Part shown: positions 3,467 to 55,117 of the stretch, in pieces | Layout of the letters: each line of letters starts with the position of its first letter | How positions within the stretch are numbered: the stretch's first letter is position 1 | The notes under the pieces: model-generated | Told to the model about the DNA's origin: nothing | The model's database searches: none | What the model saw: the letters and a program-made list of their open reading frames with translations, nothing else | Position numbers and translations under genes: made by a program | DNA from: Escherichia coli | Lineage (GTDB): Bacteria; Pseudomonadota; Gammaproteobacteria; Enterobacterales; Enterobacteriaceae | Assembly: GCF_013315695.1 (NCBI RefSeq) | Contig: NZ_CP054353.1 | Direction: 5' to 3' (one strand) | Length of the DNA: 64,000 bases

Positions 3467-3496
3467 AATAAAAAAGGCCCCCCGATTTGGGAGGCC
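3467..3496 (-). terminator. pheA attenuator terminator
   Basis: On the minus strand GGCCTCCCAAATCGGGGGGCC followed by TTTTTTATT, lying between pheL and pheA. Confidence 0.8.
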
Positions 3497-3544
3497 TTAT
3501 TGTTCGTCTTCGCATTCTGTTTCACACGACGAAACGCCTCCCAT

Positions 3545-3592
3545 TCAGGGGAAGGTAAAAAAGAATGCGAAGAAAAACGGTGTGTGTTTCAT
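3545..3592 (-). CDS. pheL: phe operon leader peptide ([15 protein letters not shown])
   Basis: Reverse complement reads ATG AAA CAC ATA CCG TTT TTC TTC GCA TTC TTT TTT ACC TTC CCC TGA, a 15-codon Phe-rich leader; too short for the ORF track. Confidence 0.9.
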   Translation of the reverse strand: [15 protein letters not shown]

Positions 3593-3646
3593 GTTTGTTT
3601 CCTTAAGTGACTTTAGTACAGTACCCGTACTGTTTTCACGCTGTCA

Positions 3647-4091: not shown

Positions 4092-4284
4092 TCAAAATGT
4101 GTGATGGAAATCTCATAATTTTGTCACTTTTTGTCAACGAATCTTTTTTGTGAGAAATCGCAGGAAGAGGTGTTTTTTACTTGAGGAATATCTCAAAGCG
4201 AGCCATATTTGATGAGATCGATAGTGACTAAATCGCTTCAGTTTCACAACTAACAGAATAAAAAAACGGCAGCTCAAGGGCTGT

Positions 4285-5709
4285 AATGCCAGTCAGTTAA
4301 GCAACTGACTGGCTCTTTTTCGGGGCTGTGGGGTATTTCCAGGGCCTCTCCTTTACCACTCTCGGGAAGGCCCTTTCCCTTCTTGTCGGTAATTTCACAA
4401 GTTGTCCCATACTTGCAAGATCGCGCATCAGCTCCGGTATACGTCCCGGTGAAGCGCCCTGCAATGTCATCAGCATTCTCATCACCATTCCGCATGATTC
4501 TGAGAAACTCAGTTGATTCGGCCAGTAACCTTTCAGATGTTCCGCCATTTTAATCATCTGATATCTCACCAGATTATAAGCCAGTAAGACACCCCACAGC
4601 TCTTGCTCCACAAGCTCCGGTTTTTTACTTCTCAGCGTCAGCCTGCTCAGTTGCATCGTCTGTTTTATCTCCCTGTATCCCAGTTCGATTTCCCAGCGAT
4701 GACTGTACAGATCCGCCATTTCTCCTCCGGGGAAGCGCATGGCGTCCGTCATCGACGTCAGCAGATGGCAGACTTTTCCTTTGCGCGTCACGGTCAGCAG
4801 GCGGGCTGTCACTTCATTTCCCAGTCCCGGCCACTTTTTTCGTGCCTGCGGGCTGGTTTTCAGCTTCACCAGATGATCGCCTTTACCCAGTTTTCTGATC
4901 TCTTCATATTGCGCTCCCTTTCTGAGAGGTATCATCCAGTGGCGGTGTTCTCCCGCCAGGCTCCAGGCATTTAACAGTCCCAGTGAGTAATAACCTTTAT
5001 CCATTAACGTCAGAGTGTTATCGCCGGTTTGTTCTATAAGTTGCTCAGCAAGCTCATTTTCGCTGTTCTTCATCGTGCCGAAGGCTGCAGCCGTCAGCAG
5101 ATGGCTGGTCAGTTCCATCTGGCAGACCATTTTGACCTGCGGGTAGAGCGCCGGGTTCCCGGCATGTGTCTGGCGGGGGAAGGCTGCATCGTTCTCTGGT
5201 GTATCCGGTGTGCGCCAGAACACACCATCGATGGCCAGCAGGGTCAGGCCGCACCAGTGCGGATGCGGCGTGGCGTTATGCCAGAGCTGCGCTGTTTTCG
5301 TGAACACGCGGCGGACAGCCTCACTTCCCAGGCGCTGGCGGGCCTGAATAACGGCACTGGGGGCAACGAAGGGGCGATTGCCCGGCAGCATGATGTCCAG
5401 GCGATTCACAATCTGGTGAAGAGGTTCTTTACGCTCAAGCGCCATGCCAACAATACACCAGACCATCATTTCGAGGGGAAGACGGCGCTTGCGTAGCGTT
5501 ACAGTACCTGATTCGGCAAGGCAACGAGAGATGAGTTCGGGGTCGAGGTAATCCCCCAGAGAAGTCAGTGGGTTACGCAGAGAATCGTAACGGGATACCA
5601 GATCAAGAGCCTGTCCAATGTGCATAAAAAAATCCGGAAACAAGTGAGCGTTTCCGGATTCTTACACAGCCACTGGATCGGTCAACTGATCCTTAACTGA
5701 TCGGCATTA
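4285..5709 (-). mobile_element. IS4 insertion sequence, complete (about 1425 bp)
   Basis: Imperfect terminal inverted repeats TAATGCCAGTCAGTTAAG (left, from 4285) and TAATGCCGATCAGTTAAG (right, reverse complement ending 5709), 16 of 18 identical, enclosing a single DDE transposase ORF. Confidence 0.88.
4297..5625 (-). CDS. insG: IS4 family transposase
   Basis: ORF 4297..5643; recognised as the IS4 transposase, with the likely start at the internal [16 protein letters not shown] (track ORF is 6 aa longer). Confidence 0.85.
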
Positions 5710-5750
5710 CAGCCCGAAGGCTGGCATTTTTAAATCAGATAAAGTCAGAC

Positions 5751-7064
<1,314 letters not shown>

Positions 7065-14164: not shown

Positions 14165-16921
14165 ATGACCAACTACAGCCTGCGCGCACGCATGATGATT
14201 CTGATCCTGGCACCGACCGTCCTGATTGGTTTATTGCTGAGTATCTTTTTCGTCGTGCATCGCTATAACGACTTGCAGCGTCAACTGGAAGATGCCGGTG
14301 CCAGCATTATTGAGCCGCTTGCAGTTTCTACTGAATATGGCATGAGCCTGCAAAATCGCGAATCTATCGGTCAGTTAATAAGCGTACTGCATCGCCGCCA
14401 TTCCGATATTGTTCGCGCAATTTCGGTTTATGATGAAAATAACCGACTCTTTGTCACCTCCAATTTTCATCTTGATCCTTCATCAATGCAGCTCGGTAGC
14501 AACGTGCCGTTTCCTCGCCAGCTCACTGTCACACGTGACGGCGATATTATGATCCTCCGCACGCCGATTATTTCTGAGAGTTACTCCCCCGACGAATCGC
14601 CCAGTAGCGATGCCAAAAATAGTCAAAATATGTTGGGATATATTGCGCTTGAGCTGGATCTTAAATCGGTTCGCTTGCAGCAATATAAAGAGATCTTTAT
14701 TTCCAGCGTGATGATGCTGTTTTGTATCGGTATTGCGCTTATTTTTGGCTGGCGCTTAATGCGCGATGTAACCGGTCCGATTCGCAATATGGTGAATACC
14801 GTCGACCGCATCCGTCGCGGGCAACTCGACAGCCGGGTGGAAGGATTTATGCTCGGCGAGCTGGATATGCTGAAAAACGGTATCAACTCGATGGCAATGT
14901 CGCTGGCTGCTTATCACGAAGAGATGCAACACAATATCGACCAGGCGACGTCCGATCTGCGTGAAACGCTGGAGCAAATGGAGATTCAGAACGTTGAGTT
15001 GGATCTGGCGAAAAAGCGCGCCCAGGAAGCGGCGCGTATTAAATCCGAGTTTCTGGCAAATATGTCACACGAGCTGCGTACACCACTGAATGGTGTTATT
15101 GGCTTTACCCGCCTGACGCTGAAAACAGAATTAACACCAACGCAGCGCGATCACCTGAATACGATTGAACGTTCGGCAAATAATTTGCTGGCAATTATTA
15201 ATGATGTTCTCGACTTCTCGAAACTGGAAGCCGGTAAGCTGATTCTGGAAAGTATTCCATTCCCACTACGCAGCACGCTGGATGAAGTCGTTACCCTGCT
15301 GGCACATTCTTCTCACGATAAAGGGCTGGAACTGACGCTCAATATTAAAAGCGACGTGCCTGATAACGTGATCGGCGACCCACTACGATTACAGCAAATC
15401 ATCACTAACCTGGTGGGGAATGCAATTAAATTCACCGAGAATGGCAACATTGATATTCTGGTAGAAAAACGTGCGCTGAGTAATACCAAAGTGCAAATTG
15501 AAGTGCAGATTCGGGATACCGGCATTGGTATTCCTGAACGCGATCAATCGCGCTTATTCCAGGCCTTCAGACAGGCTGATGCCAGTATTTCCCGCCGTCA
15601 TGGTGGCACCGGGCTGGGGCTGGTGATTACACAAAAACTGGTTAATGAAATGGGCGGTGATATTTCGTTCCATAGCCAGCCGAATCGTGGTTCAACTTTC
15701 TGGTTCCACATTAATCTCGATCTGAACCCGAACATTATTATCGAAGGGCCATCCACCCAGTGCCTCGCCGGTAAGCGCCTGGCCTATGTCGAACCAAATT
15801 CCGCAGCAGCGCAATGCACGCTGGATATTTTAAGTGAAACGCCGCTGGAAGTGGTTTATAGCCCAACGTTCTCCGCGCTGCCTCCCGCGCATTACGACAT
15901 GATGTTATTAGGCATAGCGGTGACCTTCCGCGAGCCGCTAACAATGCAACATGAGCGATTAGCGAAAGCAGTATCGATGACCGATTTCCTGATGCTGGCA
16001 CTTCCTTGCCATGCACAAGTCAATGCTGAAAAACTTAAGCAAGATGGTATCGGCGCGTGTCTGCTGAAACCATTAACACCTACGCGCCTGTTGCCTGCCC
16101 TGACGGAATTTTGTCATCACAAACAAAACACGCTTTTGCCTGTAACCGATGAAAGTAAGCTGGCAATGACAGTCATGGCGGTTGATGACAACCCCGCTAA
16201 CCTGAAACTTATCGGCGCATTGCTGGAAGATATGGTGCAACATGTGGAACTTTGCGATAGCGGGCATCAGGCGGTTGAACGGGCGAAACAGATGCCGTTC
16301 GATTTGATCTTAATGGATATTCAAATGCCGGACATGGATGGCATTCGGGCCTGCGAACTCATCCACCAACTCCCGCATCAGCAACAAACGCCGGTTATCG
16401 CGGTAACGGCGCATGCAATGGCCGGGCAAAAAGAGAAGCTGCTTGGCGCAGGGATGAGCGATTATCTGGCGAAACCGATTGAAGAAGAGCGATTGCATAA
16501 TTTGTTGTTGCGCTACAAGCCTGGCAGCGGTATTTCCTCTCGCGTCGTGACGCCCGAAGTCAACGAAATTGTGGTGAACCCGAATGCGACCCTCGACTGG
16601 CAACTGGCACTACGCCAGGCAGCAGGAAAAACCGATTTAGCGCGCGATATGCTGCAAATGTTACTCGATTTCCTGCCTGAAGTTCGCAACAAAGTTGAGG
16701 AACAGCTGGTTGGAGAAAACCCGGAAGGCCTGGTTGATTTGATTCATAAACTGCATGGCAGTTGCGGCTATAGCGGTGTGCCGCGTATGAAGAATCTCTG
16801 CCAACTGATCGAACAACAGCTACGTAGCGGTACTAAAGAAGAAGATTTGGAGCCGGAGCTGCTGGAACTGTTAGACGAGATGGATAATGTAGCGCGCGAA
16901 GCCAGCAAAATTCTCGGGTAA
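14165..16921 (+). CDS. barA: hybrid sensor histidine kinase BarA (BarA/UvrY two-component system)
   Basis: 918-aa ORF with N-terminal transmembrane segments, HAMP, HisKA (SHELRTPLN), HATPase, receiver and Hpt domains. Confidence 0.95.
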
Positions 16922-16995
16922 CGGACGTCTTGTCGAGTAGCAATCGGCTTTTTATGAAGCTGGTTTCAGACTGGTGACAAAGTGCCTGTGTTTAT

Positions 16996-17029
16996 GCCGG
17001 ATGCGGCGTTAACGCCTTATCCTGCCTAC
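16996..17029. repeat. REP (repetitive extragenic palindromic) element
   Basis: gccggatgcggcgttaacgccttatcctgcctac, the canonical REP consensus, in the barA-gudD intergenic region. Confidence 0.7.
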
Positions 17030-17114
17030 AAAACCAATTAAATTCAATGAATTAAAAAGTATGTTGGCCTGATACGTAGCGCAACAGGCAATTTTGCGTT
17101 TGGCATCAGTCTCA

Positions 17115-17147
17115 AACCGGCTCCTGACAGAGCCGGTTTTTGTTTTC
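17115..17147. terminator. bidirectional rho-independent terminator between barA and gudD
   Basis: aaaccggctc...gagccggttt hairpin flanked by A-run upstream and T-run downstream. Confidence 0.7.
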
Positions 17148-17151
17148 AGTC

Positions 17152-18492
17152 TTAACGCACCATGCACGGGCGCTTGTTATCAAACGTCCAGCCAGGAATC
17201 AGGTACTGCATTCCCATCGCATCGTCACGCGCGCCAAGCCCGTGTTTCTGATACAGCTCGTGGGCTTTCATCACCTGATCCATATCGATTTCTACGCCCA
17301 ATCCTGGTTTTTGCGGCACCTGTACCAGCCCGCCTTTGATCTCAAACGGTTCTTTGGTCAGACGCTGATTGCCTTCCTGCCAGATCCAGTGCGTATCAAT
17401 AGCAGTAATTTTACCCGGTGCAGCAGCGGCTACATGGGTAAACATCGCCAGGGAAATATCGAAGTGGTTGTTAGAGTGTGAACCCCAGGTCAGGCCAAAT
17501 TCATGGCACATTTGCGCCACACGTACCGAACCTTGCATCGTCCAGAAATGCGGATCCGCCAGCGGGATATCAACGGATTGCAGGGAGAGCGTATGGCCCA
17601 TCTGCCGCCAGTCGGTGGCGATCATATTGGTTGCGGTCGGCAGGCCTGTCGCGCGACGGAACTCTGCCATCACTTCACGCCCGGAGAAACCTTGCTCCGC
17701 ACCACACGGATCTTCTGCATAAGCCAGCGAACCTTTCAGGTATGTACCAATTTTAATCGCTTCGTTCAGCGACCAGGCACCGTTAGGATCGAGGGTAATA
17801 CGCGCCTGTGGGAAGCGTTGCGCCAGTGCCACAATAGATTCTGCTTCTTCTTCCCCGGCCAGTACACCGCCCTTCAGTTTGAAATCGTTGAAGCCATATT
17901 TTTCATATGCCGCTTCCGCCAGGCGCACCACCGCATCCGGCGTCATCGCTTCTTCGTGACGCAGGCGATACCAGTCACATTGATCATCCGGCTGGCTTTG
18001 ATACGGCAGCGGTGTGGCTTTGCGATTACCGACGAAGAACAGATAACCGAGCATTTCGACTTCGCTACGCTGTTGACCATCGCCCAGCAGCGATGCCACG
18101 TTAACCCCCAGATGCTGCCCCAGCAGATCCAGCATTGCCGCTTCTATCCCGGTAACCACATGAATAGTGGTCCGCAGGTCAAATGTCTGCAAACCGCGCC
18201 CGCCGGCATCACGATCGGCAAATGTATTACGCACCAGCGTCAGAACGTTTTTGTATTCACCCAGCGTTTTACCCACCACCAGCGGAATCGCATCTTCCAG
18301 CGTTTTACGGATTTTCTCGCCGCCGGGAATTTCCCCTACCCCAGTGTGACCAGAATTATCTTTGATAATCACAATATTACGCGTGAAGAACGGTGCGTGT
18401 GCACCACTCAGATTCATCAGCATACTGTCATGGCCCGCCACCGGGATGACCTGCATTTCAGTAACAACAGGCGTCGAAAATTGAGAACTCAT
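17152..18492 (-). CDS. gudD: glucarate dehydratase
   Basis: Enolase-superfamily ORF; track ORF (454 aa) starts 8 codons early, probable true start at MSSQF...; paralogous to the adjacent gudX. Confidence 0.9.
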
Positions 18493-23262: not shown

Positions 23263-23622
23263 AATAAAAAAAGGGAGCACTGTATTCACAGTGCTCCCGG
23301 TTCGTTTCGCAGCATTCCAGCTACTTTTGTTGCTCCCTGCTCATCCTTGACAACTTTTCCTCTGGCCTTGCGGCCAATCGTTCATCCTGAACTATTGCTT
23401 CCTGCTCACACCACCCCGATGTGATACTTCATCCTGAAGTGTCCCTGGCCTTCCTGACCCACCGAATCATCCTGACCGGTTCTCATTCTCCATCCTGGAG
23501 GTGTCCTTTAACGCGTCCTGCGTCATCCTCTTCGCTTCATCCAGAAGCCTTTCCCTGAAACACCATCCTGGTGTGTCCTTCAGAAGTGTCATCATCCTGA
23601 TGTTCACTTCGTTGTCTGACTC
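23263..23622 (-). ncRNA. csrB: CsrB small RNA (CsrA-sequestering)
   Basis: Minus strand begins GAGTCAGACAACGAAGTGAACATCAGGATGATG... and ends in GGAGCACTGTGAATACAGTGCTCCC + T-run; many repeated CAGGATG/AGGA motifs (plus strand shows repeated catcctg). Confidence 0.93.
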
Positions 23623-30049: not shown

Positions 30050-30916
<867 letters not shown>

Positions 30917-30920
30917 CGAC

Positions 30921-31005
30921 GTGCCGGATGCAAACGATTACCAGCACATTGAATTTAATGCACTTATATGCCGGATAAGACGCGGCTAGCGTCGCATCCG
31001 GCATT
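30921..31005. repeat. REP elements between xni and fucO
   Basis: gccggataagacgcggctagcgtcgcatccggca and an upstream gtgccggatgc copy; canonical REP palindromes. Confidence 0.7.
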
Positions 31006-31020
31006 ATCACATCAGCGCAT

Positions 31021-32172
31021 TTACCAGGCGGTATGGTAAAGCTCTACAATATCCTCAAGCGTTGCTTCACGCGGGTTGCCACCGGTACAAACATCATCCA
31101 GTGCCGCCTGCGCCAGTGCCGGAATGTCTTCCTTGCGTACACCAACATCACGCAAATGTGGCGGAATACCGACATCACGGTTGAGAGCAAACACCGCTTC
31201 AACAGCGGCATTACGCGCCTCTTCCAGGCTCATACCTTCCGCTTTCACGCCCATAACGCGCGCGATATCGCGGTACTTCTCACCGGTACAGTCAGCGTTA
31301 TAGCGCATGACATGCGGTAACAGGATGGCGTTCGCAACACCGTGTGGCGTGTTGTAAAACGCGCCCAGTGGATGCGCCATACCATGCACCAACCCTAACC
31401 CAACATTCGAGAAGCCCATACCCGCAACATACTGCCCGAGCGCCATTTCTTCTCCGGCATCCTTATCACCAGCAACCGATCCTCGCAGCGCCCCAGCAAT
31501 GATTTCAATCGCTTTAATGTGCAGTGCATCAGTTAGTGCCCACGCGCCACGGGTAATATACCCCTCAATAGCATGAGTGAGCGCATCGACACCCGTCGCG
31601 GCTTTCAGCGCTGGAGGCATACCATCCATCATGTCAGCGTCAATAAACGCCACCTGCGGGATATCATGCGGATCAACGCAAACAAACTTGCGCCGTTTTT
31701 CTTCGTCAGTGATCACGTAGTTAATGGTCACTTCTGCCGCAGTACCTGCTGTGGTGGGGATTGCCAGAATCGGTACACTGGGTTTATTGGTCGGGGAAAG
31801 CCCTTCCAGGCTACGCACATCGGCAAACTCCGGGTTGTTGCTGATAATGCCAATCGCTTTACACGTATCCTGTGGAGAACCACCACCAATAGCGATCAGG
31901 TAATCCGCGCCGCTATTCTGGAATACATCGAGCCCTTCTTTGACGACAGTAATTGTTGGGTTGGGCACGACGCCGTCGTAAATCGCCCATGCCAGTCCTG
32001 CCGCATCCATCTTATCGGTCACTTTCGCCACCACGCCGCATTGCACCAGCGTTTTATCGGTGACGATCAGCGCCTTCTGATAACCACGGCGTTTCACCTC
32101 ATCGGTTAAAGCCCCAACAGCACCCCGACCAAACCATGCCGTTTCGTTCAGAATCATTCTGTTAGCCATCAT
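31021..32172 (-). CDS. fucO: L-1,2-propanediol oxidoreductase (lactaldehyde reductase)
   Basis: 383-aa iron-containing alcohol dehydrogenase; fucA-fucO operon. Confidence 0.93.
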   Translation of the reverse strand: MMANRMILNETAWFGRGAVGALTDEVKRRGYQKALIVTDKTLVQCGVVAKVTDKMDAAGLAWAIYDGVVPNPTITVVKEGLDVFQNSGADYLIAIGGGSPQDTCKAIGIISNNPEFADVRSLEGLSPTNKPSVPILAIPTTAGTAAEVTINYVITDEEKRRKFVCVDPHDIPQVAFIDADMMDGMPPALKAATGVDALTHAIEGYITRGAWALTDALHIKAIEIIAGALRGSVAGDKDAGEEMALGQYVAGMGFSNVGLGLVHGMAHPLGAFYNTPHGVANAILLPHVMRYNADCTGEKYRDIARVMGVKAEGMSLEEARNAAVEAVFALNRDVGIPPHLRDVGVRKEDIPALAQAALDDVCTGGNPREATLEDIVELYHTAW

Positions 32173-36515: not shown

Positions 36516-36623
36516 TACATTACTCCCTGATGTGATGCCCGGTCGCTCCGGCTACCGGGCCTGAACAAGCAAGAGTGGTTAGCCGGATAAGCAATGTTAT
36601 CCGGCTATATTGCAGGAGCGATT

Positions 36624-41851: not shown

Positions 41852-42057
41852 ACTTCCTGAGCCGGAACGAAAAGTTTTATCGGAATGCGTGTTCTGGTGA
41901 ACTTTTGGCTTACGGTTGTGATGTTGTGTTGTTGTGTTTGCAATTGGTCTGCGATTCAGACCATGGTAGCAAAGCTACCTTTTTTCACTTCCTGTACATT
42001 TACCCTGTCTGTCCATAGTGATTAATGTAGCACCGCCTAATTGCGGTGCTTTTTTTT
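41852..42057 (+). ncRNA. gcvB: GcvB small RNA (Hfq-dependent)
   Basis: Starts ACTTCCTGAGCCGGAACG a few bp after a TATAGT -10; contains GU-rich block GTTGTGATGTTGTGTTGTTGTGTTTG; ends in GCACCGCCTAATTGCGGTGC + T8 terminator. Confidence 0.92.
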
Positions 42058-42492: not shown

Positions 42493-43698
42493 ATGAACGT
42501 TTTTAATCCCGCGCAGTTTCGCGCCCAGTTTCCCGCGCTACAGGATGCGGGCGTCTATCTCGACAGCGCCGCGACCGCGCTTAAACCTGAAGCCGTGGTT
42601 GAAGCCACCCGACAGTTTTATAGCCTGAGCGCCGGAAACGTCCATCGCAGCCAGTTTGCCGAAGCCCAACGCCTGACCGCGCGTTACGAAGCTGCGCGGG
42701 AAAAAGTGGCACAATTACTGAATGCATCGGATGACAAAAATATCGTCTGGACGCGCGGCACCACTGAATCCATCAACATGGTGGCGCAATGCTATGCCCG
42801 TCCGCGTCTGCAACCGGGCGATGAAATTATTGTCAGTGTGGCAGAACACCACGCCAACCTCGTCCCCTGGCTGATGGTCGCCCAACAAACGGGGGCCAAA
42901 GTGGTGAAATTGCCGCTTAATGCGCAGCGACTGCCGGATGTCGATTTGTTGCCAGAACTGATTACTCCCCGTAGTCGGATTCTGGCGTTGGGCCAGATGT
43001 CGAACGTCACTGGCGGTTGCCCGGATCTGGCGCGAGCGATTACCTTTGCTCATTCAGCCGGGATGGTGGTGATGGTTGATGGTGCTCAGGGGGCGGTGCA
43101 TTTCCCCGCAGATGTTCAGCAACTGGATATCGATTTCTATGCTTTCTCTGGTCACAAACTGTATGGCCCGACGGGTATCGGCGTGCTGTATGGCAAATCA
43201 GAACTGCTGGAAGCGATGTCACCCTGGCTGGGTGGCGGCAAAATGATTCACGAAGTGAGTTTTGACGGCTTCACGACTCAATCTGCGCCGTGGAAACTGG
43301 AAGCCGGAACGCCAAATGTCGCTGGTGCTATAGGATTAAGCGCGGCGCTGGAATGGCTGGCAGATTACGATATCAACCAGGCCGAAAGCTGGAGCCGTAG
43401 CTTAGCAACGCTTGCAGAAGAAGCGCTGGCAAAACGTCCTGGCTTCCGCTCATTTCGCTGCCAGGATTCCAGCCTGCTGGCCTTTGATTTTGCTGGAGTT
43501 CATCACAGCGATATGGTGACGCTGCTGGCGGAGTACGGTATTGCCCTGCGGGCCGGGCAGCATTGCGCTCAGCCGCTACTGGCAGAATTAGGCGTAACCG
43601 GCACACTGCGCGCCTCTTTTGCGCCATATAATACAAAGAGTGATGTGGATGCGCTGGTGAATGCCGTTGACCGCGCGCTGGAATTATTGGTGGATTAA
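42493..43698 (+). CDS. csdA: cysteine desulfurase / sulfinate desulfinase
   Basis: Class V aminotransferase fold; track ORF starts at 42457, probable true start [16 protein letters not shown] at 42493 (401 aa). Confidence 0.92.
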
Positions 43699-44141
43699 TG
43701 ACGAACCCGCAATTCGCCGGACATCCGTTCGGCACAACCGTAACCGCAGAAACGTTACGCAATACCTTCGCACCGTTGACGCAATGGGAAGATAAATATC
43801 GCCAGTTGATCATGCTGGGGAAACAGCTTCCGGCTTTGCCAGACGAGTTAAAAGCGCAGGCTAAAGAGATTGCCGGATGCGAAAACCGCGTCTGGCTGGG
43901 ATATACCGTGGCTGAAAACGGTAAAATGCACTTCTTTGGCGACAGCGAAGGGCGCATTGTGCGCGGCCTGCTGGCAGTGTTGTTGACTGCCGTTGAGGGG
44001 AAAACCGCCGCCGAATTGCAGGCACAGTCGCCGCTGGCATTGTTTGATGAGCTGGGATTGCGTGCGCAGCTTAGCGCCTCACGCAGCCAGGGGTTGAATG
44101 CGTTAAGCGAGGCGATTATCGCTGTGGCGAAGCAGGTTTAA
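43698..44141 (+). CDS. csdE: sulfur acceptor protein CsdE (SufE-like)
   Basis: 147-aa SufE-family ORF, start overlapping the csdA stop. Confidence 0.9.
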
Positions 44142-44191
44142 GCACAGAACCAGGTCGGATAAGACGTTCGCGTCGCATCCGACCTGATTGT

Positions 44192-44998
44192 TTACCCCTG
44201 ACGCGCCGCTTTCGCCATCATCTTCTTCAGCGCATGAGAAACCGCAACAAAACCAAAGGTGGCGGTCACCATCGTCGCGGCACCAAATCCAGATGCACAA
44301 TCCATCCGCTTTGGCCCTTCCGCCGTAGCTTTCATTGCACAGACCGAGCCATCTGACTGCGGGTACACCAGCGCTTCGGTAGAGAACACGCAATCCACGC
44401 CGAGCTTACCTTTGCTGTTTTTCACTACGCCAAAATCGCTTTTCAGGCGCTCGCGCAACTTCGCCGCCAGCGGGTCCTGAATCGTTTTCGCCAGATCGGT
44501 AACCTGAATCTGCGTCGGGTCAATCTGCCCACCCGCGCCACCAGTCGTGACCAGCGGGATTTTATTGCGCCGACAATAAGCAATCAGCGCCGCTTTGGGC
44601 CGTACGCTATCAATGGCATCAATCACGTACGAATAACCCACGCTCATATACTGCGCTACGTTATCCGGCGTCACGAAGTCATCCACTACCGTTACACGGC
44701 ACTCCGGGTTAATCTGGCGAATACGCTCCGCCATTACTTCCGCTTTTGCCAGCCCAACGTTATCGCGCAGGGCGTGAATTTGCCGATTGGTATTGGTGAC
44801 GCACACATCATCCATATCGATAAGCGTGATTGCGCCAATCCCCGTGCGCGCCAGCGCTTCCGCCGCCCAGGAACCGACACCACCGATACCAACCACACAA
44901 ATATGCGCGTCAGCAAACAGTTGCAATGCTTTTTCACCATACAGACGCGCTGTGCCACCAAAACGCTGACGCCATGCATCACTAATTACCACAGACAT
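44192..44998 (-). CDS. tcdA: tRNA threonylcarbamoyladenosine dehydratase (ThiF/MoeB-like E1)
   Basis: 268-aa ORF with Rossmann motif VVGIGGVGSW; convergent with csdAE. Confidence 0.9.
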   Translation of the reverse strand: MSVVISDAWRQRFGGTARLYGEKALQLFADAHICVVGIGGVGSWAAEALARTGIGAITLIDMDDVCVTNTNRQIHALRDNVGLAKAEVMAERIRQINPECRVTVVDDFVTPDNVAQYMSVGYSYVIDAIDSVRPKAALIAYCRRNKIPLVTTGGAGGQIDPTQIQVTDLAKTIQDPLAAKLRERLKSDFGVVKNSKGKLGVDCVFSTEALVYPQSDGSVCAMKATAEGPKRMDCASGFGAATMVTATFGFVAVSHALKKMMAKAARQG

Positions 44999-46380: not shown

Positions 46381-46457
<77 letters not shown>

Positions 46458-46490
46458 ATTAAAATTTGATGAAGTAAAGCAGTACGGTGA

Positions 46491-46567
<77 letters not shown>

Positions 46568-46600
46568 ATCAAAATTTAATGAAGTAAAGTAGTACGGTGA

Positions 46601-46677
<77 letters not shown>

Positions 46678-46755: not shown

Positions 46756-47712
46756 TCACAACACGTTTTTTATCTCCCTTCCTGCGAAGTAATCAATTAT
46801 CGACTGGGCAACGTGTATCCCGGTTTGCTGGTATGACTCAACGGTGGCTGCCGCGATATGCGGCGTTGTAATGATATTTTTGGCATGTAGCAGTGGGCTA
46901 AATTGCGCCAACGGTTCAGAGCTAAACACATCCAGCGCCGCAAACACATTTCGTTCTTCAATCACCTGAAGTAAAGCGCCCTCATCCAGCAACTTTCCCC
47001 TTGCGGCATTGATGATCAGAGCACCATTGCGCATCATCGACAAATATTTATGACTAATGAAGTTCTCCAGCTCCGGAGAAAATGGCAAAAGAACGATGAT
47101 GACATGAGACTGCATAAAGATATCTTCAATTGATACGAACTGAACTCCATCTTTGCCTGCGGCCTGGAAATCGGGTTGTTTGTCAAAAGCTAAAAGCTCA
47201 ACATCAAAACCAGATAACCTTTTCGCCAGTGTTTTGCCAATATTGCCGTAGCCAAGCAGGCCAATACGTTTACCTTGTAACTCGCAGCCATGCGACTCGC
47301 CCCAATAACCATTTTGCATCGCATGATAGCTACCGGGGATATTTCTCATGCTCGCGAAGATAAGTCCAATGATAAATTCCGCAACCGCATTTGAATTAAT
47401 CCCAACCGCATTATTGACAACAATACCGGATTGCTGTGCCGCACGAAGATCAATATTGTCTATCCCCGTCCCGAATCTCGATATTATTTTCACACCAGAC
47501 AGCAATGATAGCGTGTCCGCCTGATAACAATCTTTTCCGGCGATGACCGCGCAAATAGATTCTCGTAATGCAGTGGATTCTGATTTAAGCAGATGCTCCA
47601 CATTATTCTTAATAATAAGATTAAAATTATTCTCTCTTAGCAACTTGCTGGCGGAAACACAGCGTGCTGAAAAGCTGGGGACGGTGACCAGAACATTTTT
47701 CATAGCTGACAC
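46756..47712 (-). CDS. D-isomer-specific 2-hydroxyacid dehydrogenase family protein (accessory island)
   Basis: 318-aa ORF with NAD-binding GxGxxG (GLLGYGNIG) and catalytic-domain layout of SerA/GhrA-type dehydrogenases; AT-rich codon usage. Confidence 0.75.
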   Translation of the reverse strand: MSAMKNVLVTVPSFSARCVSASKLLRENNFNLIIKNNVEHLLKSESTALRESICAVIAGKDCYQADTLSLLSGVKIISRFGTGIDNIDLRAAQQSGIVVNNAVGINSNAVAEFIIGLIFASMRNIPGSYHAMQNGYWGESHGCELQGKRIGLLGYGNIGKTLAKRLSGFDVELLAFDKQPDFQAAGKDGVQFVSIEDIFMQSHVIIVLLPFSPELENFISHKYLSMMRNGALIINAARGKLLDEGALLQVIEERNVFAALDVFSSEPLAQFSPLLHAKNIITTPHIAAATVESYQQTGIHVAQSIIDYFAGREIKNVL

Positions 47713-47773
47713 TCACTTCAAAGAACGCCACCCCAAAAGATGGCGTGACCGGTTACTGTTTTATATTCTAAAA

Positions 47774-48370
47774 TTATGAGTTTGCTTTAATACCGAGCGC
47801 ACCTCCTGGATGATATAAGCCGAAATCAGCACGAGTAAACTTTTTCAATTCGGAGAGCGCAAGCGCCACCGCATCACCAACAACCAGAACGACTGTTGAT
47901 GAGCATGACGGCGCTAAACCTAAATTATCCGCCTCACTTTTTACGGGAATTTCAACGGATAAATCACAACTTATCGCAAGCGATGAGTGATGACTGCGTG
48001 TAAAAGAGATCAAATAATTACCCATTTTTTTCAGACTAGGCAGTGTCGCCAGGATTTCCGCCGTCTCACCACTGTTTGAAATAAGAATAACAACATCGTC
48101 TTTCGCCACCATTCCAAGGTCGCCGTGTACCGCTTCCGTACCGTGAACAAAAAACGAGGGAGTTCCGGTACTGGCAAAAGTTGCTGCGAGTTTTCTGGCA
48201 ATAATACCGGACTTACCAACACCAATAAAAACAACTTTTCCCTGACAAGATTGTAATACTTTAATTAAATTTGCGACCTCCGAAAGGGGGGAATCAATAA
48301 CTTCTTCAACTGCTTTATATTCGTTACGCATAAAATGTTTAATGAGATGGATAAGATCCGTGCTGTTCAT
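47774..48370 (-). CDS. SIS-domain sugar-phosphate isomerase (KpsF/GutQ-like SIS domain without CBS domains)
   Basis: 198-aa ORF with SIS motifs GVGKSG...SNSGET; closest in memory to arabinose-5-P isomerase or hexulose-6-P isomerase SIS domains. Confidence 0.7.
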   Translation of the reverse strand: MNSTDLIHLIKHFMRNEYKAVEEVIDSPLSEVANLIKVLQSCQGKVVFIGVGKSGIIARKLAATFASTGTPSFFVHGTEAVHGDLGMVAKDDVVILISNSGETAEILATLPSLKKMGNYLISFTRSHHSSLAISCDLSVEIPVKSEADNLGLAPSCSSTVVLVVGDAVALALSELKKFTRADFGLYHPGGALGIKANS

Positions 48371-48372
48371 TT

Positions 48373-49554
48373 TTATTTTCCTTGATTAATATTTTTAATT
48401 ACACTCGCAAGACGCGTAAGCCCCATATATAATTTTTCTCGACCGCAGGCCAGGTTCAGACGAAGGTAGCCCTCCCCCTCCGTTCCATAGACATGCCCCG
48501 CCATAATGCCCACTTTGCCTTCATGAATTAATCGACTGTAAAATTCATCAAAAGGATAACCAATAGCAGAACAATCTATCCAGGAAAAATAGCAACCATC
48601 AGCTGGCCTTACGATCAATTCTGGAATATTTTCATTCAGATACTGCTGGGTGAATTGAATGTTAGAGGCAATATGTACCTTTAATGACTTTAACCATCCC
48701 TCACATTCGTTATAGGCAATAATAGTTGCAATTATATTCAGTACTGATGGGGAGTTTACAAAATCGCGATACCTCGATATCGTTCTGAACTTATGATTAA
48801 AATTATCGTCAGTTGAAATCATATACGATCCTGTTAGTGCAGGAACATTAAATGTTTTCGATATCGAGTTAAATACTACTACTTTTTCTTTTTTTATTTT
48901 AAGCGCGGATGTAAAGCTACGATTAAAAACAAAATCACTATGGATTTCATCTGAACATAACCAGACATTATGCCTTGTACAGCTTGCAGCGATTTTATGC
49001 AGTTCTTCTTCCGACCAGACTGTTCCTGTCGGGTTATGAGGATTACATAATAACACCATCTTTGCGCCTTTAATCTTAAGTTCAAAATCTTGCCAGTTGA
49101 TAGCGTAGCCCCCCTCATTTTTTATAATCAAAGAGGCTGTCAGAATATTTCGCTCGCTATGTTTAATTACATCAAAAAATGCATTATAGACAGGTGTAAA
49201 AACGAGAATATTATCACCATGTGATGTCAATAACTCTATTGCTTTTGCAATAGAGTACATCACACTGGGGCTATAGGTGATCCATTCTGGTTTGATTTCA
49301 GTTTTATATTGTTGATGATACCAGTTTACTATCGCATTCAGATAGTCATCATGCTGCCAACGGCTGTACCCTAAAATCGGGTGTTCCAGACGTTTTCTTA
49401 ATGCCCTGATGATAGCGTCCGGTATCGGAAGATCCATATCTGAAATAGAGAATGGTAATACATCTTTTACACCAAATCTGTCCTCGCAAAAGTCCCATTG
49501 GGTACAATATGTTCCTTTGCGGGAAACAGGAGTATTAAAAACATCCATCAGCAT
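48373..49554 (-). CDS. PLP-dependent C-S lyase / aminotransferase, MalY/PatB family
   Basis: 393-aa ORF that aligns by eye along its length with E. coli MalY (TQWD, LPF.ISDMD, LLC.P.NPTG, SDEIH, SK.FN.PAL). Confidence 0.75.
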   Translation of the reverse strand: MLMDVFNTPVSRKGTYCTQWDFCEDRFGVKDVLPFSISDMDLPIPDAIIRALRKRLEHPILGYSRWQHDDYLNAIVNWYHQQYKTEIKPEWITYSPSVMYSIAKAIELLTSHGDNILVFTPVYNAFFDVIKHSERNILTASLIIKNEGGYAINWQDFELKIKGAKMVLLCNPHNPTGTVWSEEELHKIAASCTRHNVWLCSDEIHSDFVFNRSFTSALKIKKEKVVVFNSISKTFNVPALTGSYMISTDDNFNHKFRTISRYRDFVNSPSVLNIIATIIAYNECEGWLKSLKVHIASNIQFTQQYLNENIPELIVRPADGCYFSWIDCSAIGYPFDEFYSRLIHEGKVGIMAGHVYGTEGEGYLRLNLACGREKLYMGLTRLASVIKNINQGK

Positions 49555-51128
49555 ATCCCCATGTAGTTATCCATATCCCGACGCAAGGCGATGACTTTAG
49601 TACCGATAATGACTTGTAGGGTATTTTGATCAAGTTTAACAACCGCAATCCCGCCAGCTCTTTTTATTGCAACTTCGTCAATCAATCCCATATCTGCGAT
49701 TGTTAAACGTAAACGAGTTACGCAATTATCCAGTGACTTAATATTCTCTTTACCACCAAGTGCCTTAACCATCTGCTCCGCCGCTTGCAGCTCTGATTTA
49801 TCAGGAGTTGGGATATCCGCTATAGCCGTATCTTCGTGAACGTTCAGCGTGACAGGACTGGACTCTTCACGGCCTACGGTCATCAGGTTAAATTTAAGAA
49901 TGGTCCAACGGAACACAAAGTAATAAATGAAGAAATAGGCCACTTCGACACACACCGCGATCGGCCAACCTGTTCTTGTGCCACGCAATACGCCAAAGCT
50001 AATAAATTGAATCAGATCGCCAGTAAATCCCATCTTCACGCCCATATATGGCAGAACCATGTTAGCGAATCCATTCATAAAGGCATGGAAGACAAACAGC
50101 AGTGGACTGACAAATAAGAACAGAAACTCAATCGGTTCGCTGACGCCGCCAATAATCACCGTAAGCACCCCGGAAATAAGCAATGCTTTGATAGCCTTTC
50201 TGTTTTGAGCATGAGCAGTGCGATACATCGCCAGCGCGGCACCAGCCAGACCATACTGAATCATCAGTTTGCCCTGCTCCATTTTCCCCGCCAAATCCAG
50301 CGGAATGACCGCATTCTCTTTAACGTATGCCATAAACATGTTCAGGGTGCCGTAATATTCTTCGCCGCCAATCACAGCCGAACCGCCGATTGGCGTAAAG
50401 CGGAAAACTGACGTCACCAGATGGTTTAAGCCAAAAGGAATCGTCACGCGTTCGGCAACTGCATAGAAGAAATAACCAACAGGACCGGAAGTTGATATCC
50501 AGTGGCCAATGAGCATGAAGAGATTGAAAAACGGCGGCCAGATAAAAGGAATGATCAGACCAAATCCACTCATCACAATCAGTGTAATGATAGGCACCAG
50601 ACGTGGGCCGCTATAAAAACCTAATGATTCAGGAATGCGTAAATTAACGATCTTTTTATACATGCTGGCGACTAATAACCCAGCAACAATTCCCCCTAAC
50701 ACGCTGGTATTGTAGGACTGGATCCCCAGAATGATGGTTTGCCCATGTGTCGACATTTGGTCAGCAGCGACCAATAAGTCGTGCTGTTTAAGATAAAAGT
50801 TCGTTCCCAGATGCATCGCCATAAAACCAATTAAGCCAGAAAAAGCGCCATAGGCTTTATCCTCTTTCTCTTTTAATAATCCTAAGGGAATTGCTATCGC
50901 AAACAATACAGGTAAATTAACAAAGGCAAACAAACCAAGGCTAACAATGAAATCAAGTATGGTTTTAATTATTGGAATAGTCAGAAATGGAATTAACTTT
51001 GCCATATCATCACTGGCTAAACCACTTCCCAGCCCTAGCATCATGCCACATACACTTAGCAGAGCAATGGGATACATAAATGCCTTCCCCAGGCTCTGAA
51101 AAAAACTCCAGGCTTTCTTTTGTTTCAT
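49548..51128 (-). CDS. PTS glucose-family EIICB component, MalX-like
   Basis: 526-aa polytopic ORF with C-terminal EIIB phosphocysteine motif (NCVTRLRL); strong resemblance to MalX/PtsG EIICB. Confidence 0.8.
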   Translation of the reverse strand: MKQKKAWSFFQSLGKAFMYPIALLSVCGMMLGLGSGLASDDMAKLIPFLTIPIIKTILDFIVSLGLFAFVNLPVLFAIAIPLGLLKEKEDKAYGAFSGLIGFMAMHLGTNFYLKQHDLLVAADQMSTHGQTIILGIQSYNTSVLGGIVAGLLVASMYKKIVNLRIPESLGFYSGPRLVPIITLIVMSGFGLIIPFIWPPFFNLFMLIGHWISTSGPVGYFFYAVAERVTIPFGLNHLVTSVFRFTPIGGSAVIGGEEYYGTLNMFMAYVKENAVIPLDLAGKMEQGKLMIQYGLAGAALAMYRTAHAQNRKAIKALLISGVLTVIIGGVSEPIEFLFLFVSPLLFVFHAFMNGFANMVLPYMGVKMGFTGDLIQFISFGVLRGTRTGWPIAVCVEVAYFFIYYFVFRWTILKFNLMTVGREESSPVTLNVHEDTAIADIPTPDKSELQAAEQMVKALGGKENIKSLDNCVTRLRLTIADMGLIDEVAIKRAGGIAVVKLDQNTLQVIIGTKVIALRRDMDNYMGIC

Positions 51129-51159
51129 GTGGGTTATCTCATATAAATGTTATATATAA

Positions 51160-51984
51160 TTAGTCCATTAATACTTTGGTACGAATAGAGAGATATAGTT
51201 TTTCTTCTAAAATTAATTCATATTTAAAAGTGGCATACAGATACCGTTCAATTTCATGAATTGCGCGCTGTAAAAGGATGTCCTTTTCAAGAAACTGTTC
51301 ATAGATATCACCAATATCTTTCTGTTTTATTTTTTCATTGCATAACACGCGACTTGAAAAATATTTAAGGTGTATCATGAACCTGGAATAATTAAATGAA
51401 CTTCTGTCCACCTTTCTGTTATAAACAACTTCAATAAGCCCCGTGATTATTTGCGACAACTCAATAATCCGTACTGATTCATAATCAACTGAATTTTCAT
51501 AATTATTTAAAATATGCAATGCTATAAAACCAATCTCATCATCAGGAAGTTGAACGCTGAATTGCTCATTAATGATAGTTAATGCATCGCGACTTATCGC
51601 ATACTCTGCTTTGTACAACGCTTTGATTTCATCAAGGAAAACATTATTAATTTGTATGCCTGAAGCGACTCTGGATATTGCATTCGAAATGTGATCAGCA
51701 AGAATCAATAGTAGCGATGGATTGAGATTTTTTTCGAGATTGTTCTCCGCATATTGCACTATTTTTTCGGCAACAAAAACATACTCAATATCCACATGTT
51801 CAATCAATTTGTAGAGTTTATTTTTTTGTTCATTTCTGACATAAAAAATCCGGTTAGCCGGATGCTCAGGGACCGACATTCCATATTTTTTGTTGTAACC
51901 GACGCCAGGCCCAGAAATGATAACCTCCTGTCCATTCATCGATGCCTGTACACAATTATTGTTCATGACTTTTTCGATGATCAT
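51160..51984 (-). CDS. BglG/LicT-family transcription antiterminator (CAT RNA-binding domain + PRDs)
   Basis: N-terminus MIIEKVMNNNCVQASMNGQEVIISGPGVGY matches the co-antiterminator domain signature; track ORF starts 19 codons upstream (52041) inside the leader terminator, and GGAG precedes the ATG at 51984. Confidence 0.7.
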   Translation of the reverse strand: MIIEKVMNNNCVQASMNGQEVIISGPGVGYNKKYGMSVPEHPANRIFYVRNEQKNKLYKLIEHVDIEYVFVAEKIVQYAENNLEKNLNPSLLLILADHISNAISRVASGIQINNVFLDEIKALYKAEYAISRDALTIINEQFSVQLPDDEIGFIALHILNNYENSVDYESVRIIELSQIITGLIEVVYNRKVDRSSFNYSRFMIHLKYFSSRVLCNEKIKQKDIGDIYEQFLEKDILLQRAIHEIERYLYATFKYELILEEKLYLSIRTKVLMD

Positions 51985-51995
51985 TCCATGGCTCC

Positions 51996-52068
51996 AAAAA
52001 AAAAGGCAAGGCACGTCAGAAGTAATAACTACTTCAAACATTGCCTTGCCTGATTTAACAGTTACAAG
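51996..52068 (-). promoter_or_regulatory. RAT (ribonucleic antiterminator) overlapping a rho-independent terminator in the antiterminator leader
   Basis: Minus strand CTTGTAACTGTTAAATCAGGCAAG resembles the BglG/LicT RAT consensus (GGATTGTTACTG...CAGGCAAAACC); its 3' half forms the 5' arm of hairpin GGCAAGG...CCTTGCC followed by T9. Confidence 0.6.
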
Positions 52069-53724: not shown

Positions 53725-55056
53725 GTGGTAAAGGAACGTAAAACCGAGCTGGTCGAGGGGTTCCGCCATTCGGTTCCTTATATCAATACCCACCGGGGAA
53801 AAACGTTTGTCATCATGCTCGGCGGTGAAGCCATTGAGCATGAGAATTTCTCCAGTATCGTTAATGATATCGGGTTGCTGCACAGCCTCGGCATCCGTCT
53901 GGTCGTGGTCTATGGAGCGCGCCCGCAGATCGATGCAAATCTGGCAGCGCATCACCACGAACCGCTATATCACAAAAATATACGCGTGACCGACGCCAAA
54001 ACACTAGAACTGGTGAAGCAGGCTGCGGGAACATTGCAACTGGATATTACTGCTCGCCTGTCGATGAGTCTCAATAACACGCCGCTGCAGGGCGCGCATA
54101 TCAACGTCGTCAGTGGCAATTTTATTATTGCCCAGCCGCTGGGCGTGGATGACGGTGTGGATTACTGCCATAGCGGGCGTATCCGGCGGATTGACGAAGA
54201 TGCGATTCATCGTCAACTGGACAGCGGTGCGATAGTGCTGCTGGGGCCGGTCGCGGTTTCAGTCACTGGCGAGAGCTTTAATCTGACCTCGGAAGAGATT
54301 GCCACTCAACTGGCCATCAAACTGAAAGCTGAGAAGATGATTGGTTTTTGCTCTTCACAGGGCGTCACTAATGACGACGGTGATATTGTCTCAGAACTTT
54401 TCCCTAACGAAGCGCAAGCGCGGGTAGAAGCCCAGGAAGAGAAAGGCGATTACAACTCCGGTACGGTGCGCTTTTTGCGTGGCGCAGTGAAAGCCTGCCG
54501 CAGCGGCGTGCGTCGCTGTCATTTAATCAGTTATCAGGAAGATGGCGCGCTGTTGCAAGAGTTGTTCTCACGTGACGGTATCGGTACGCAGATTGTGATG
54601 GAAAGCGCCGAGCAAATTCGTCGCGCAACAATCAACGATATTGGCGGCATTCTGGAGTTGATTCGCCCACTGGAGCAGCAAGGTATTCTGGTACGCCGTT
54701 CTCGCGAGCAGCTGGAGATGGAAATCGACAAATTCACCATTATTCAGCGCGATAACACGACTATTGCCTGCGCCGCGCTCTATCCGTTCCCGGAAGAGAA
54801 GATTGGGGAAATGGCCTGTGTGGCAGTTCACCCGGATTACCGCAGCTCATCACGGGGCGAGGTTCTGCTGGAACGCATTGCCGCTCAGGCGAAGCAGAGC
54901 GGCTTAAGCAAATTGTTTGTGCTGACCACGCGCAGTATTCACTGGTTCCAGGAACGTGGATTTACCCCAGTGGATATTGATTTACTGCCCGAGAGCAAAA
55001 AGCAGTTGTACAACTACCAGCGTAAATCCAAAGTTTTGATGGCGGATTTAGGGTAA
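53725..55056 (+). CDS. argA: N-acetylglutamate synthase
   Basis: 443-aa ORF with amino-acid kinase domain plus C-terminal GNAT domain; GTG start. Confidence 0.95.
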
Positions 55057-55117
55057 GCGATGAAAATCGCCGGATGCGACATGCGTAACACTCGTGCGTC
55101 GCATCCGGCAATTACGT

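Follow-up and report, generated by a model that had tools for sequence, protein, structure and literature searches.

Resident and variously decayed REP/BIME repeats between convergent genes in 64 kb of an Escherichia coli chromosome

The palindromes that lie between the convergent genes barA/gudD, xni/fucO, csdE/tcdA and argA/recD in a 64-kb stretch of Escherichia coli chromosome (the window, whose positions are used throughout) are very likely resident, variously decayed copies of the E. coli repetitive extragenic palindrome (REP) and bacterial interspersed mosaic element (BIME) repeat family, with a likely local role in 3′ untranslated regions (UTRs). The sites carry the sequence and structure of the family and its high copy number, they lie outside genes, they have orthologues at the same junctions in nearly every E. 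coli genome compared, and two of the four junctions are polymorphic in length across some 5,400 genomes. Elements of this kind are ordinary and already known, REPs and BIMEs having been described in E. coli since the 1980s, and the value of the present account is mainly correct annotation. Within one window the family can be followed side by side through a series of decay, from an intact Y unit and a BIME-1 to a truncated BIME-1 and a collapsed head-head palindrome.

Family membership of the junction palindromes

REPs are defined as imperfect palindromes of 30–40 nt with a two-base stem mismatch and the tetranucleotide GTAG at the foot (Ton-Hoang et al., PMC3333891), and are divided into classes Y, z1 and z2 (Stern et al., 1984, and the Gilson/Bachellier nomenclature, as given in PMC3333891 and PMC12306157). 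For an independent reference, 38 units were pulled from four unrelated 50-kb stretches of K-12 (200 kb) by a two-arm scan, which allows a variable gap between the arms, and one hidden Markov model (HMM) profile was built from K-12 units only for each of three length classes (Y, short Z and long Z); the profiles were searched against both strands of the window. In K-12, each locus with a short unit (5-nt loop gap) has one copy, which faces a Y unit tail to tail over a linker of 32–36 nt, and long units (12–13-nt gap) form tandem arrays in which they alternate with Y units, REP325 (yjdM–yjdN) being an example. BIME-1 is defined as a single-copy pair of z1 and Y whose long L linker in many cases includes an IHF site, and BIME-2 as z2 plus Y in tandem with short linkers (PMC3333891); taken together, these arrangements and definitions identify the short unit as z1 and the long unit as z2.

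Four units in the window fit these profiles. The Y profile matched 16996–17031 (+ strand, E = 1.8e-11), the z2 profile matched 31002–30969 (− strand, E = 3.3e-9), the segment 44183–44152 (− strand) was matched by both the Y (E = 1.2e-6) and the z2 (E = 2.2e-6) profiles, and the z1 profile matched 17089–17063 (− strand, E = 1.4e-3) over model positions 1–29; beyond these four, no full-length REP profile match was found in the 64 kb on either strand. In 5425 of the 5426 complete E. coli genomes used for population comparison, a 42-mer around 16996–17029 has at least 40 matches, and this count, with the 38 units extracted from the K-12 stretches, documents the high copy number that is expected of the family. 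At each of the four junctions an orthologous element is present in at least 5403 of the 5426 genomes, and at csdE/tcdA and barA/gudD a REP-family element is present in essentially all of them. By annotation transfer and translation, all REP-family units of the four junctions are extragenic and lie between convergent stop codons.

The structural evidence agrees. The hairpins fold far better than dinucleotide shuffles of the same sequences (z scores from −3 to −6.9), and the folds of the units at 16996, 30966 and 44150 all show a stem bubble at the GCG/CTT position. Of the stem cells in 18 Y-length units, 97% are paired, and compensatory changes are seen at three pairs, two of them owed to the csdE/tcdA copy; when the 3′ partners are slid by one to three columns as a control, pairing falls to 34–43%. 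The elements thus resemble E. coli REPs as 30–40-nt imperfect G+C-rich palindromes with arms of the form GCC(G/T)GATGCG ... CTTATC(C/A)GGC that are high in copy number, extragenic and placed between convergent genes, with the units at 16996, 17063, 30966 and 44150 fitting the profiles. They differ from the type in that the foot is CTAC/GTAG only at 16996–17029, and in that the palindrome at argA/recD has neither tail arm nor bubble. The features discussed below are as follows.

16996–17029, + strand: Y-type REP unit GCCGGATGCGGCGTTAACGCCTTATCCTGCCTAC at barA/gudD, head to tail on this strand (Y profile and consensus)
17030–17062, no strand assigned: A/T-rich linker of 33 nt, BIME-1 ‘L’ type, between the tails of two units
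17063–17089, − strand: short REP unit of z1 type, degenerate, its tail facing that of the Y unit (z1 profile)
30923–30932, + strand: head-arm remnant GCCGGATGCA at xni/fucO (head motif GCCGGATGC at 30923–30931), read as a decayed second unit
30933–30965, no strand assigned: L-type linker (alignment with the BIME-1 set)
30966–31002, − strand: full z2-type REP unit GCCGGATGCGACGCTAGCCGCGTCTTATCCGGC, then ATAT (z2 profile and two-arm scan)
36582–36605, + strand: ‘tail-tail’ palindrome GCCGGATAAG-CAAT-GTTATCCGGC (GCCGGATAAGCAATGTTATCCGGC) at fucI/fucK, a possible REP relative
44150–44183, − strand: REP unit GTCGGATGCGACGCGAACGTCTTATCCGACCTGG at csdE/tcdA (two-arm scan, Y and z2 profiles)
55065–55113, no strand assigned: symmetric ‘head-head’ palindrome at argA/recD, read as REP-derived (arm identity and longer alleles elsewhere)

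An original prediction, made from the sequence of the window, had placed canonical REP sequences at these four junctions. A REP-family palindrome does stand at every position that it gave, the interval 16996–17029 being exact (direct reading, profiles and copy number), and its gene names are correct at all four junctions by annotation transfer and translation. The word canonical fits 16996–17029, where CTAC/GTAG is kept, and does not fit xni/fucO (ATAT), csdE/tcdA (CTGG) or argA/recD, which lacks the tail arm. The check that it proposed against the REP consensus gave the same division: 33 of 36 positions agree at the first site and the profiles fit xni/fucO and csdE/tcdA, with only the head arm fitting at argA/recD. 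The junctions had been described as convergent or co-oriented; all four are convergent and none is co-oriented. One REP-like hairpin, that of fucI/fucK at 36582–36605, does stand at a co-oriented junction, the sole such case, and it had not been listed. The view that such elements are normal for E. coli is borne out by the 42-mer counts and the near-universal orthologues. A scan of the window with Rfam, which holds no REP family, returned only CsrB, GcvB, three tRNAs and a Phe leader, the MG1655 RefSeq record lists no repeat features, and the supplements of PMC12306157 and PMC3333891 have no entries on the genes of these four junctions.

A decay series across four junctions

The four sites form a decay series, comprising a BIME-1-type element (barA/gudD), a decayed BIME-1 (xni/fucO), a compensated single unit (csdE/tcdA) and a deletion derivative (argA/recD). 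At barA/gudD, the Y unit at 16996–17029, which agrees at the 33 positions noted above with the published consensus GCCGGATGCGGCGTGAACGCCTTATCCGGCCTACGA (quoted in PMC12306157), is one half of a BIME-1-type element made up of the Y unit, a 33-nt L linker and a z1 unit. CTAC at 17026–17029 means that GTAG heads the Y unit on the − strand; the unit has an extra stem mismatch (T at 17023, G in K-12) and folds at −15.1 kcal/mol (z = −2.95). The z1 unit at 17063–17089 has GTTG (17063–17066) for GTAG, has lost 2 nt from the tail arm, keeps the stem bubble and folds at −11.4 kcal/mol (z = −3.0); K-12 retains GTAG at the orthologous z1 unit. The whole 94 nt aligns end to end with the K-12 BIME-1-type elements at glnQ/ybiO, ybiT/ybiU, ubiA/plsB and melB/yjdF, and the core AAATTCAAT.AATT is common to 17030–17062 and to the 32–36-nt linkers of those four elements. 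Within the linker, at 17042–17054, lies an IHF-like core ATTCAATGAATTA with one mismatch to the consensus WATCAANNNNTTR, and by analogy with other L linkers this one may bind IHF. The likeness to BIME-1 (RIP/RIB) thus consists in a single inverted pair of Y and short units, tail to tail and not in tandem, around a long, conserved, A/T-rich linker, and the difference in the degeneration of z1 (the 2-nt deletion and GTTG). Two further hairpins lie in the same gap: a strong one, AAACCGGCTCCTGACAGAGCCGGTTT at 17114–17139, with a T-run on the + strand and 12 nt past the gudD stop codon, is likely the real terminator of the junction, separate from the BIME, and a weaker terminator-like hairpin at 16932–16948 directly follows barA.

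The long allele of xni/fucO carried by the window, read on the − strand, is a decayed BIME-1 with a full unit, a linker and then a head arm only, and it can be aligned along its whole length with the same four K-12 elements. Its main unit at 30966–31002 has both 10-nt arms with zero mismatches in the two-arm scan, a stem bubble and a z2-type interior (GCGACGC...GCGTC), with ATAT at 30966–30969 where CTAC is expected; the hairpin spans 30968–31004 and folds at −25.7 kcal/mol (z = −4.7). The head-arm remnant at 30923–30932, which begins 6 nt after the xni stop, has no REP profile match of its own and holds the place of the z1 head arm in the BIME-1 alignment. The linker core CATTAAATTCAATG (− strand, 30947–30960) contains ATTAAATTCAATG, the same 13 bases as in the barA/gudD linker, and in this core lies the likeness to BIME-1. 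Unlike a typical BIME-1, the element has a main unit that is z2-type inside and not Y, and the z1 unit survives as a head remnant only.

This junction is also polymorphic, the intergenic gap being 104 nt in the window vs 54 nt in K-12. Among 40 evenly stepped rows of the 5425 matching genomes, 12 carry the long allele and 27 an allele with 50 nt less. In an alignment of six alleles, the short form is without the second-unit remnant and the linker, and its main unit has no tail arm; the remnant GCCGGAT is fused to the main-unit interior; a further G-to-A change in the K-12 short allele yields a perfect stem. A simple deletion between two GCCGGAT direct repeats was considered as the origin of the short allele and was ruled out by the same alignment: it predicts a 47-nt gap and an unchanged loop, and what is seen is a 50-nt gap and a loop with three substitutions. 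These are old alleles that went on diverging afterwards. Strain MS20645 has an intact GTAG where the window has ATAT and, since K-12 likewise retains GTAG at the barA/gudD z1 unit, the losses of GTAG are secondary. In strain cS100a (NZ_CM176582.1), a copy of IS1414 (IS256 family; positions 1165–2541 of the compared stretch) interrupts the left arm of the REP-derived hairpin at a site orthologous to window ∼30923–30930, with an 8-bp target duplication GCCGGATA; this insertion fits the preference of some insertion sequences for REPs that is reported in PMC1525189.

At csdE/tcdA, the stem of the single unit at 44150–44183 departs from the Y consensus by two compensatory changes, GTCGGAT/ATCCGAC and an A-T at pair 11–20, the first of which is also seen at three unrelated K-12 loci. 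Its foot is CTGG for CTAC and its stem bubble is present. The folds are strong (−24.3 and −27.7 kcal/mol, z = −6.4 and −6.9), and alleles of this junction differ mostly in the loop, with the stem kept.

The argA/recD palindrome at 55065–55113 has perfect 12-nt arms, GCCGGATGCGAC (55069–55080) and GTCGCATCCGGC (55098–55109), around a 17-nt spacer, with tail arm, stem bubble and CTAC all absent; it folds at −29.6 and −29.8 kcal/mol (z = −6.0 and −4.9). One could suppose that this palindrome, the one at fucI/fucK and the short xni/fucO allele are locus-specific terminators or attenuators unrelated to REPs, whose resemblance to the family is coincidental, and the perfect, symmetric arms at argA/recD and fucI/fucK, devoid of bubble and CTAC and of a significant full-length profile match, lend themselves to that view, as does the T-rich stretch that follows the argA/recD palindrome on the − strand. 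We regard this explanation as quite unlikely overall, as the argA/recD arms GCCGGATGCGAC reproduce 12 nt of the REP head exactly, the short xni/fucO allele can be aligned as a BIME-1 with 50 nt deleted from within, and alleles 20 nt longer at argA/recD contain a full z2-type REP. Specifically, the 61-nt gap of the window is common to most genomes, the rows with the 20-nt longer allele all fall below 95% identity (a band of 872 among 5425 records), and in strains p1-49 and CS18F the longer allele holds a full-length z2-type REP on the − strand (E = 7e-6 and 2e-5). With arm identity and these longer alleles as the grounds for a REP origin, the palindrome of the window and of K-12 is best read as a 20-nt deletion derivative of a full REP that lost its tail arm and kept two head arms. 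In strain E500002 (NZ_CM128599.1), a 176-nt duplication at the same junction (positions 123–389 of the compared stretch, orthologous to window 55043–55133) repeats the last argA bases and the REP-derived region and adds a canonical Y-type REP GTCGGATGCGGCGTGAACGCCTTATCCGACCTAC (E = 1.3e-12).

The longer alleles exclude a locus-specific terminator at argA/recD, so that this explanation could still apply only to the fucI/fucK hairpin. There the palindrome at 36582–36605 lies in the fucI–fucK intercistronic gap, ends 16 nt before the fucK start codon and has perfect arms and no bubble; the hairpin at 36580–36607 folds at −17.5 kcal/mol (z = −3.65), and the gap is 100% identical to K-12. Its arm is an exact 10-mer of the REP tail arm, which is weaker evidence, and matches to the REP profiles are not significant (E = 0.64 to 7.6). 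It is possibly a REP relative, and in the fucPIKUR operon it may serve to process or stabilise the mRNA between cistrons; a second hairpin at ∼36532–36557 precedes it.

The original prediction had also named the four sites as potential points of REP-associated rearrangement, and traces of it are found at two of them, xni/fucO and argA/recD, in the form of length alleles, the IS1414 insertion and the duplication. It had passed over the composite BIME-1 organisation of the first two sites and the second unit at 17063–17089; the earlier reading is refined by this organisation, by the argA/recD palindrome not being canonical, by the RayT features having been lost secondarily and by the length polymorphism of two junctions. 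With BIME-2 and REP325 the sites share the unit family and the proposed role as 3′-UTR terminator or stabiliser, and they differ from them in that the window contains no tandem arrays and one doublet at most per site.

Mobility and recognition by RayT

Judging from published work, the family would have been dispersed by TnpAREP/RayT, a domesticated Y1 transposase whose substrate is the REP hairpin in single-stranded form. Binding and cleavage by TnpAREP need both GTAG and the stem mismatch, and the enzyme cleaves and recombines BIMEs in vitro (PMC3333891). In the window, both features are present by sequence only in the Y unit of barA/gudD, which has the extra stem mismatch. Four of the five full or partial units lack GTAG/CTAC or the stem bubble and are most reasonably regarded as fossils that no longer move and that, if retained for anything, are retained for the hairpin; their recognition by RayT has probably been lost.

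We therefore weighed whether the elements might instead be currently active mobile DNA, that is, REPIN-like doublets moved by RayT. The doublet architecture at barA/gudD and xni/fucO would suit such activity, as would the in vitro action of TnpAREP on BIMEs (PMC3333891) and the canonical Y unit gained by E500002 in its argA/recD duplication. E. coli does encode RayT (b0228), and K-12 rayT (positions 238–735 of the compared stretch) was matched by megablast in 3574 of 5426 genomes (66%), with identities in two groups, 99–100% and 90–95%; this presence agrees with the rayT losses reported in clades B2 and B1. REPIN/RAYT systems also share with our sites the inverted REP doublets. They part from them in that the copies here are fixed at orthologous sites species-wide and mostly miss the GTAG for RayT. 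Orthologous elements in at least 5403 of 5426 genomes point to old, fixed insertions, the CTAC/GTAG that TnpAREP needs is present in one unit only, and the argA/recD palindrome and the short xni/fucO allele lack the stem mismatch as well. We consider present-day mobility highly improbable, and prefer to view the sites as resident copies in decay.

Proposed function at 3′ ends and other features of the window

The neighbouring genes were placed by annotation transfer and checked by translation; the distance from stop codon to hairpin foot is given where it was taken.

14165–16921, + strand: barA, 74 nt from stop codon to hairpin foot
17152–18492, − strand: gudD
30161–30916, + strand: xni
31021–32169, − strand: fucO, 16 nt
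43698–44141, + strand: csdE, 9 nt
44192–44998, − strand: tcdA, 2 nt
53725–55056, + strand: argA, 12 nt
55118–56944, − strand: recD, 4 nt

REPs show a strong bias towards gene 3′ ends, with about 60% of them in convergent and about 40% in tandem intergenic gaps. Where the flanking genes converge, the presence of a REP correlates with higher expression of both, and REP325, the best-studied example, works both as a partly Rho-dependent terminator and as an mRNA stabiliser (bioRxiv 10.64898/2026.03.23.713779). On this model, a G+C-rich hairpin transcribed into the 3′ UTRs of both convergent genes would block 3′–5′ exonucleases and would act in both directions as a terminator that is partial and depends partly on Rho. 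Between the stop codons at xni/fucO and at csdE/tcdA no further hairpin of terminator type is found, and the sole terminator-like hit at argA/recD is a small sub-hairpin inside the palindrome, so that at these three junctions the REP-derived hairpin is the only candidate 3′-end structure for both transcripts. The sites resemble Rho-independent bidirectional terminators in offering a stable hairpin between convergent stops, the sole hairpin at three junctions; they differ from them in having no U-run after the REP hairpins, except for a weak T-rich tail on the recD side, and in drawing their sequence from a dispersed repeat family that is not locus-specific. A REP within 15 nt of a stop codon is reported to stall terminating ribosomes and to lower translation (Liang et al., 2015, as cited in PMC12306157). 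The hairpin is within this distance for csdE, tcdA, argA and recD, where it may slow terminating ribosomes, and beyond it for barA and fucO; the first four genes are convenient test cases for the 15-nt translation model.

Several points weigh against such a local role or against the family assignment on which it builds. The BIME at barA/gudD has a terminator-like hairpin on either side and may see little transcription, and a general influence of REPs on mRNA half-life was not seen (bioRxiv 10.64898/2026.03.23.713779). Transcription through the copies, the positions of 3′ ends, IHF binding and ribosome stalling are, for these particular copies, matters that we infer by analogy. Matches to the IHF consensus with one mismatch occur in the window at chance level (67 seen vs 58 expected). 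The barA/gudD linker was essentially single-copy, with no other copies found by blastn, for which its divergence is too great, and the L-linker assignment therefore rests on the direct alignment with the four K-12 elements. Lastly, the REP profiles fit 55065–55113 only at the 12–15-nt head arm, without significance (E = 0.05 to 3.5). These points are included in our judgement that resident, decayed REP/BIME copies with a local 3′-UTR role are very likely.

Two more specific accounts of function may be considered beside it. First, the hairpins at csdE/tcdA and argA/recD could be selected, immobilised REP derivatives that act for both genes as shared terminator, exonuclease block and ribosome brake. 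This suggestion arises because the hairpins lie 2–12 nt from both stops, the RayT features are lost, and the stems are kept or improved, as in the two compensatory pairs of csdE/tcdA, the perfect 12-bp arms of argA/recD and the G-to-A change of the K-12 xni/fucO allele. We hold it to be unlikely; if true, the length alleles found among strains would tune the expression of both neighbours.

Second, the main role might lie at the level of DNA, with IHF at BIME-1 linkers and gyrase or Pol I at the units organising supercoiling between convergent units. Positive supercoils build up at convergent junctions, and the L-type linker with its IHF-like core is common to other BIME-1 elements. L linkers of BIME-1 often carry an IHF site (PMC3333891), and IHF may bind the linkers here too. 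The motif, however, is mismatched and not enriched over chance, the second units are decayed and the linker is found at only two of the sites, and no role of REP325 in chromosome compaction or long-range contacts was found (bioRxiv 10.64898/2026.03.23.713779). A primarily DNA-level function seems to us unlikely, and we retain the 3′-UTR role of resident REP copies as the preferred reading.

Beyond the REP family, the Rfam matches in the window comprise CsrB at 23263–23622 (− strand), GcvB at 41852–42057 (+ strand), three tandem initiator tRNA-Met genes (metZWV) at 46381–46674 (+ strand) and a Phe_leader match at 3468–3593 (− strand), which is accounted for by the pheA/pheL region. The closest complete genome, MS 21-1 (NZ_CP146670.1), differs by 10 bases over window positions 6,001–33,999; its match begins at ∼5.7 kb, and later test stretches are exact except for a 1-nt indel upstream of argA. 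An IS4 copy at ∼4278–5731 joins the aroF-tyrA-pheA-pheL-raiA region (the first ∼4.28 kb) straight to eno, and the ygcE-CRISPR-queE-ygcG side is missing from the window. In MS 21-1, the pheA region and eno are ∼195 kb apart, and its IS4 is oppositely oriented and adjoins ygcG. This arrangement suggests an inversion or rearrangement bounded by IS4 in the source strain, or else a join that the assembly made at IS4. Finally, ∼5.5 kb between the tRNA-Met genes and amiC (∼46756–52000) is not in K-12; its genes include a phosphoglycerate dehydrogenase pseudogene, a KpsF/GutQ-like isomerase, MalY/PatB, PTS EIIC and a PRD-domain regulator, and a 1-kb probe from this region is present in 1688 of 5426 genomes.

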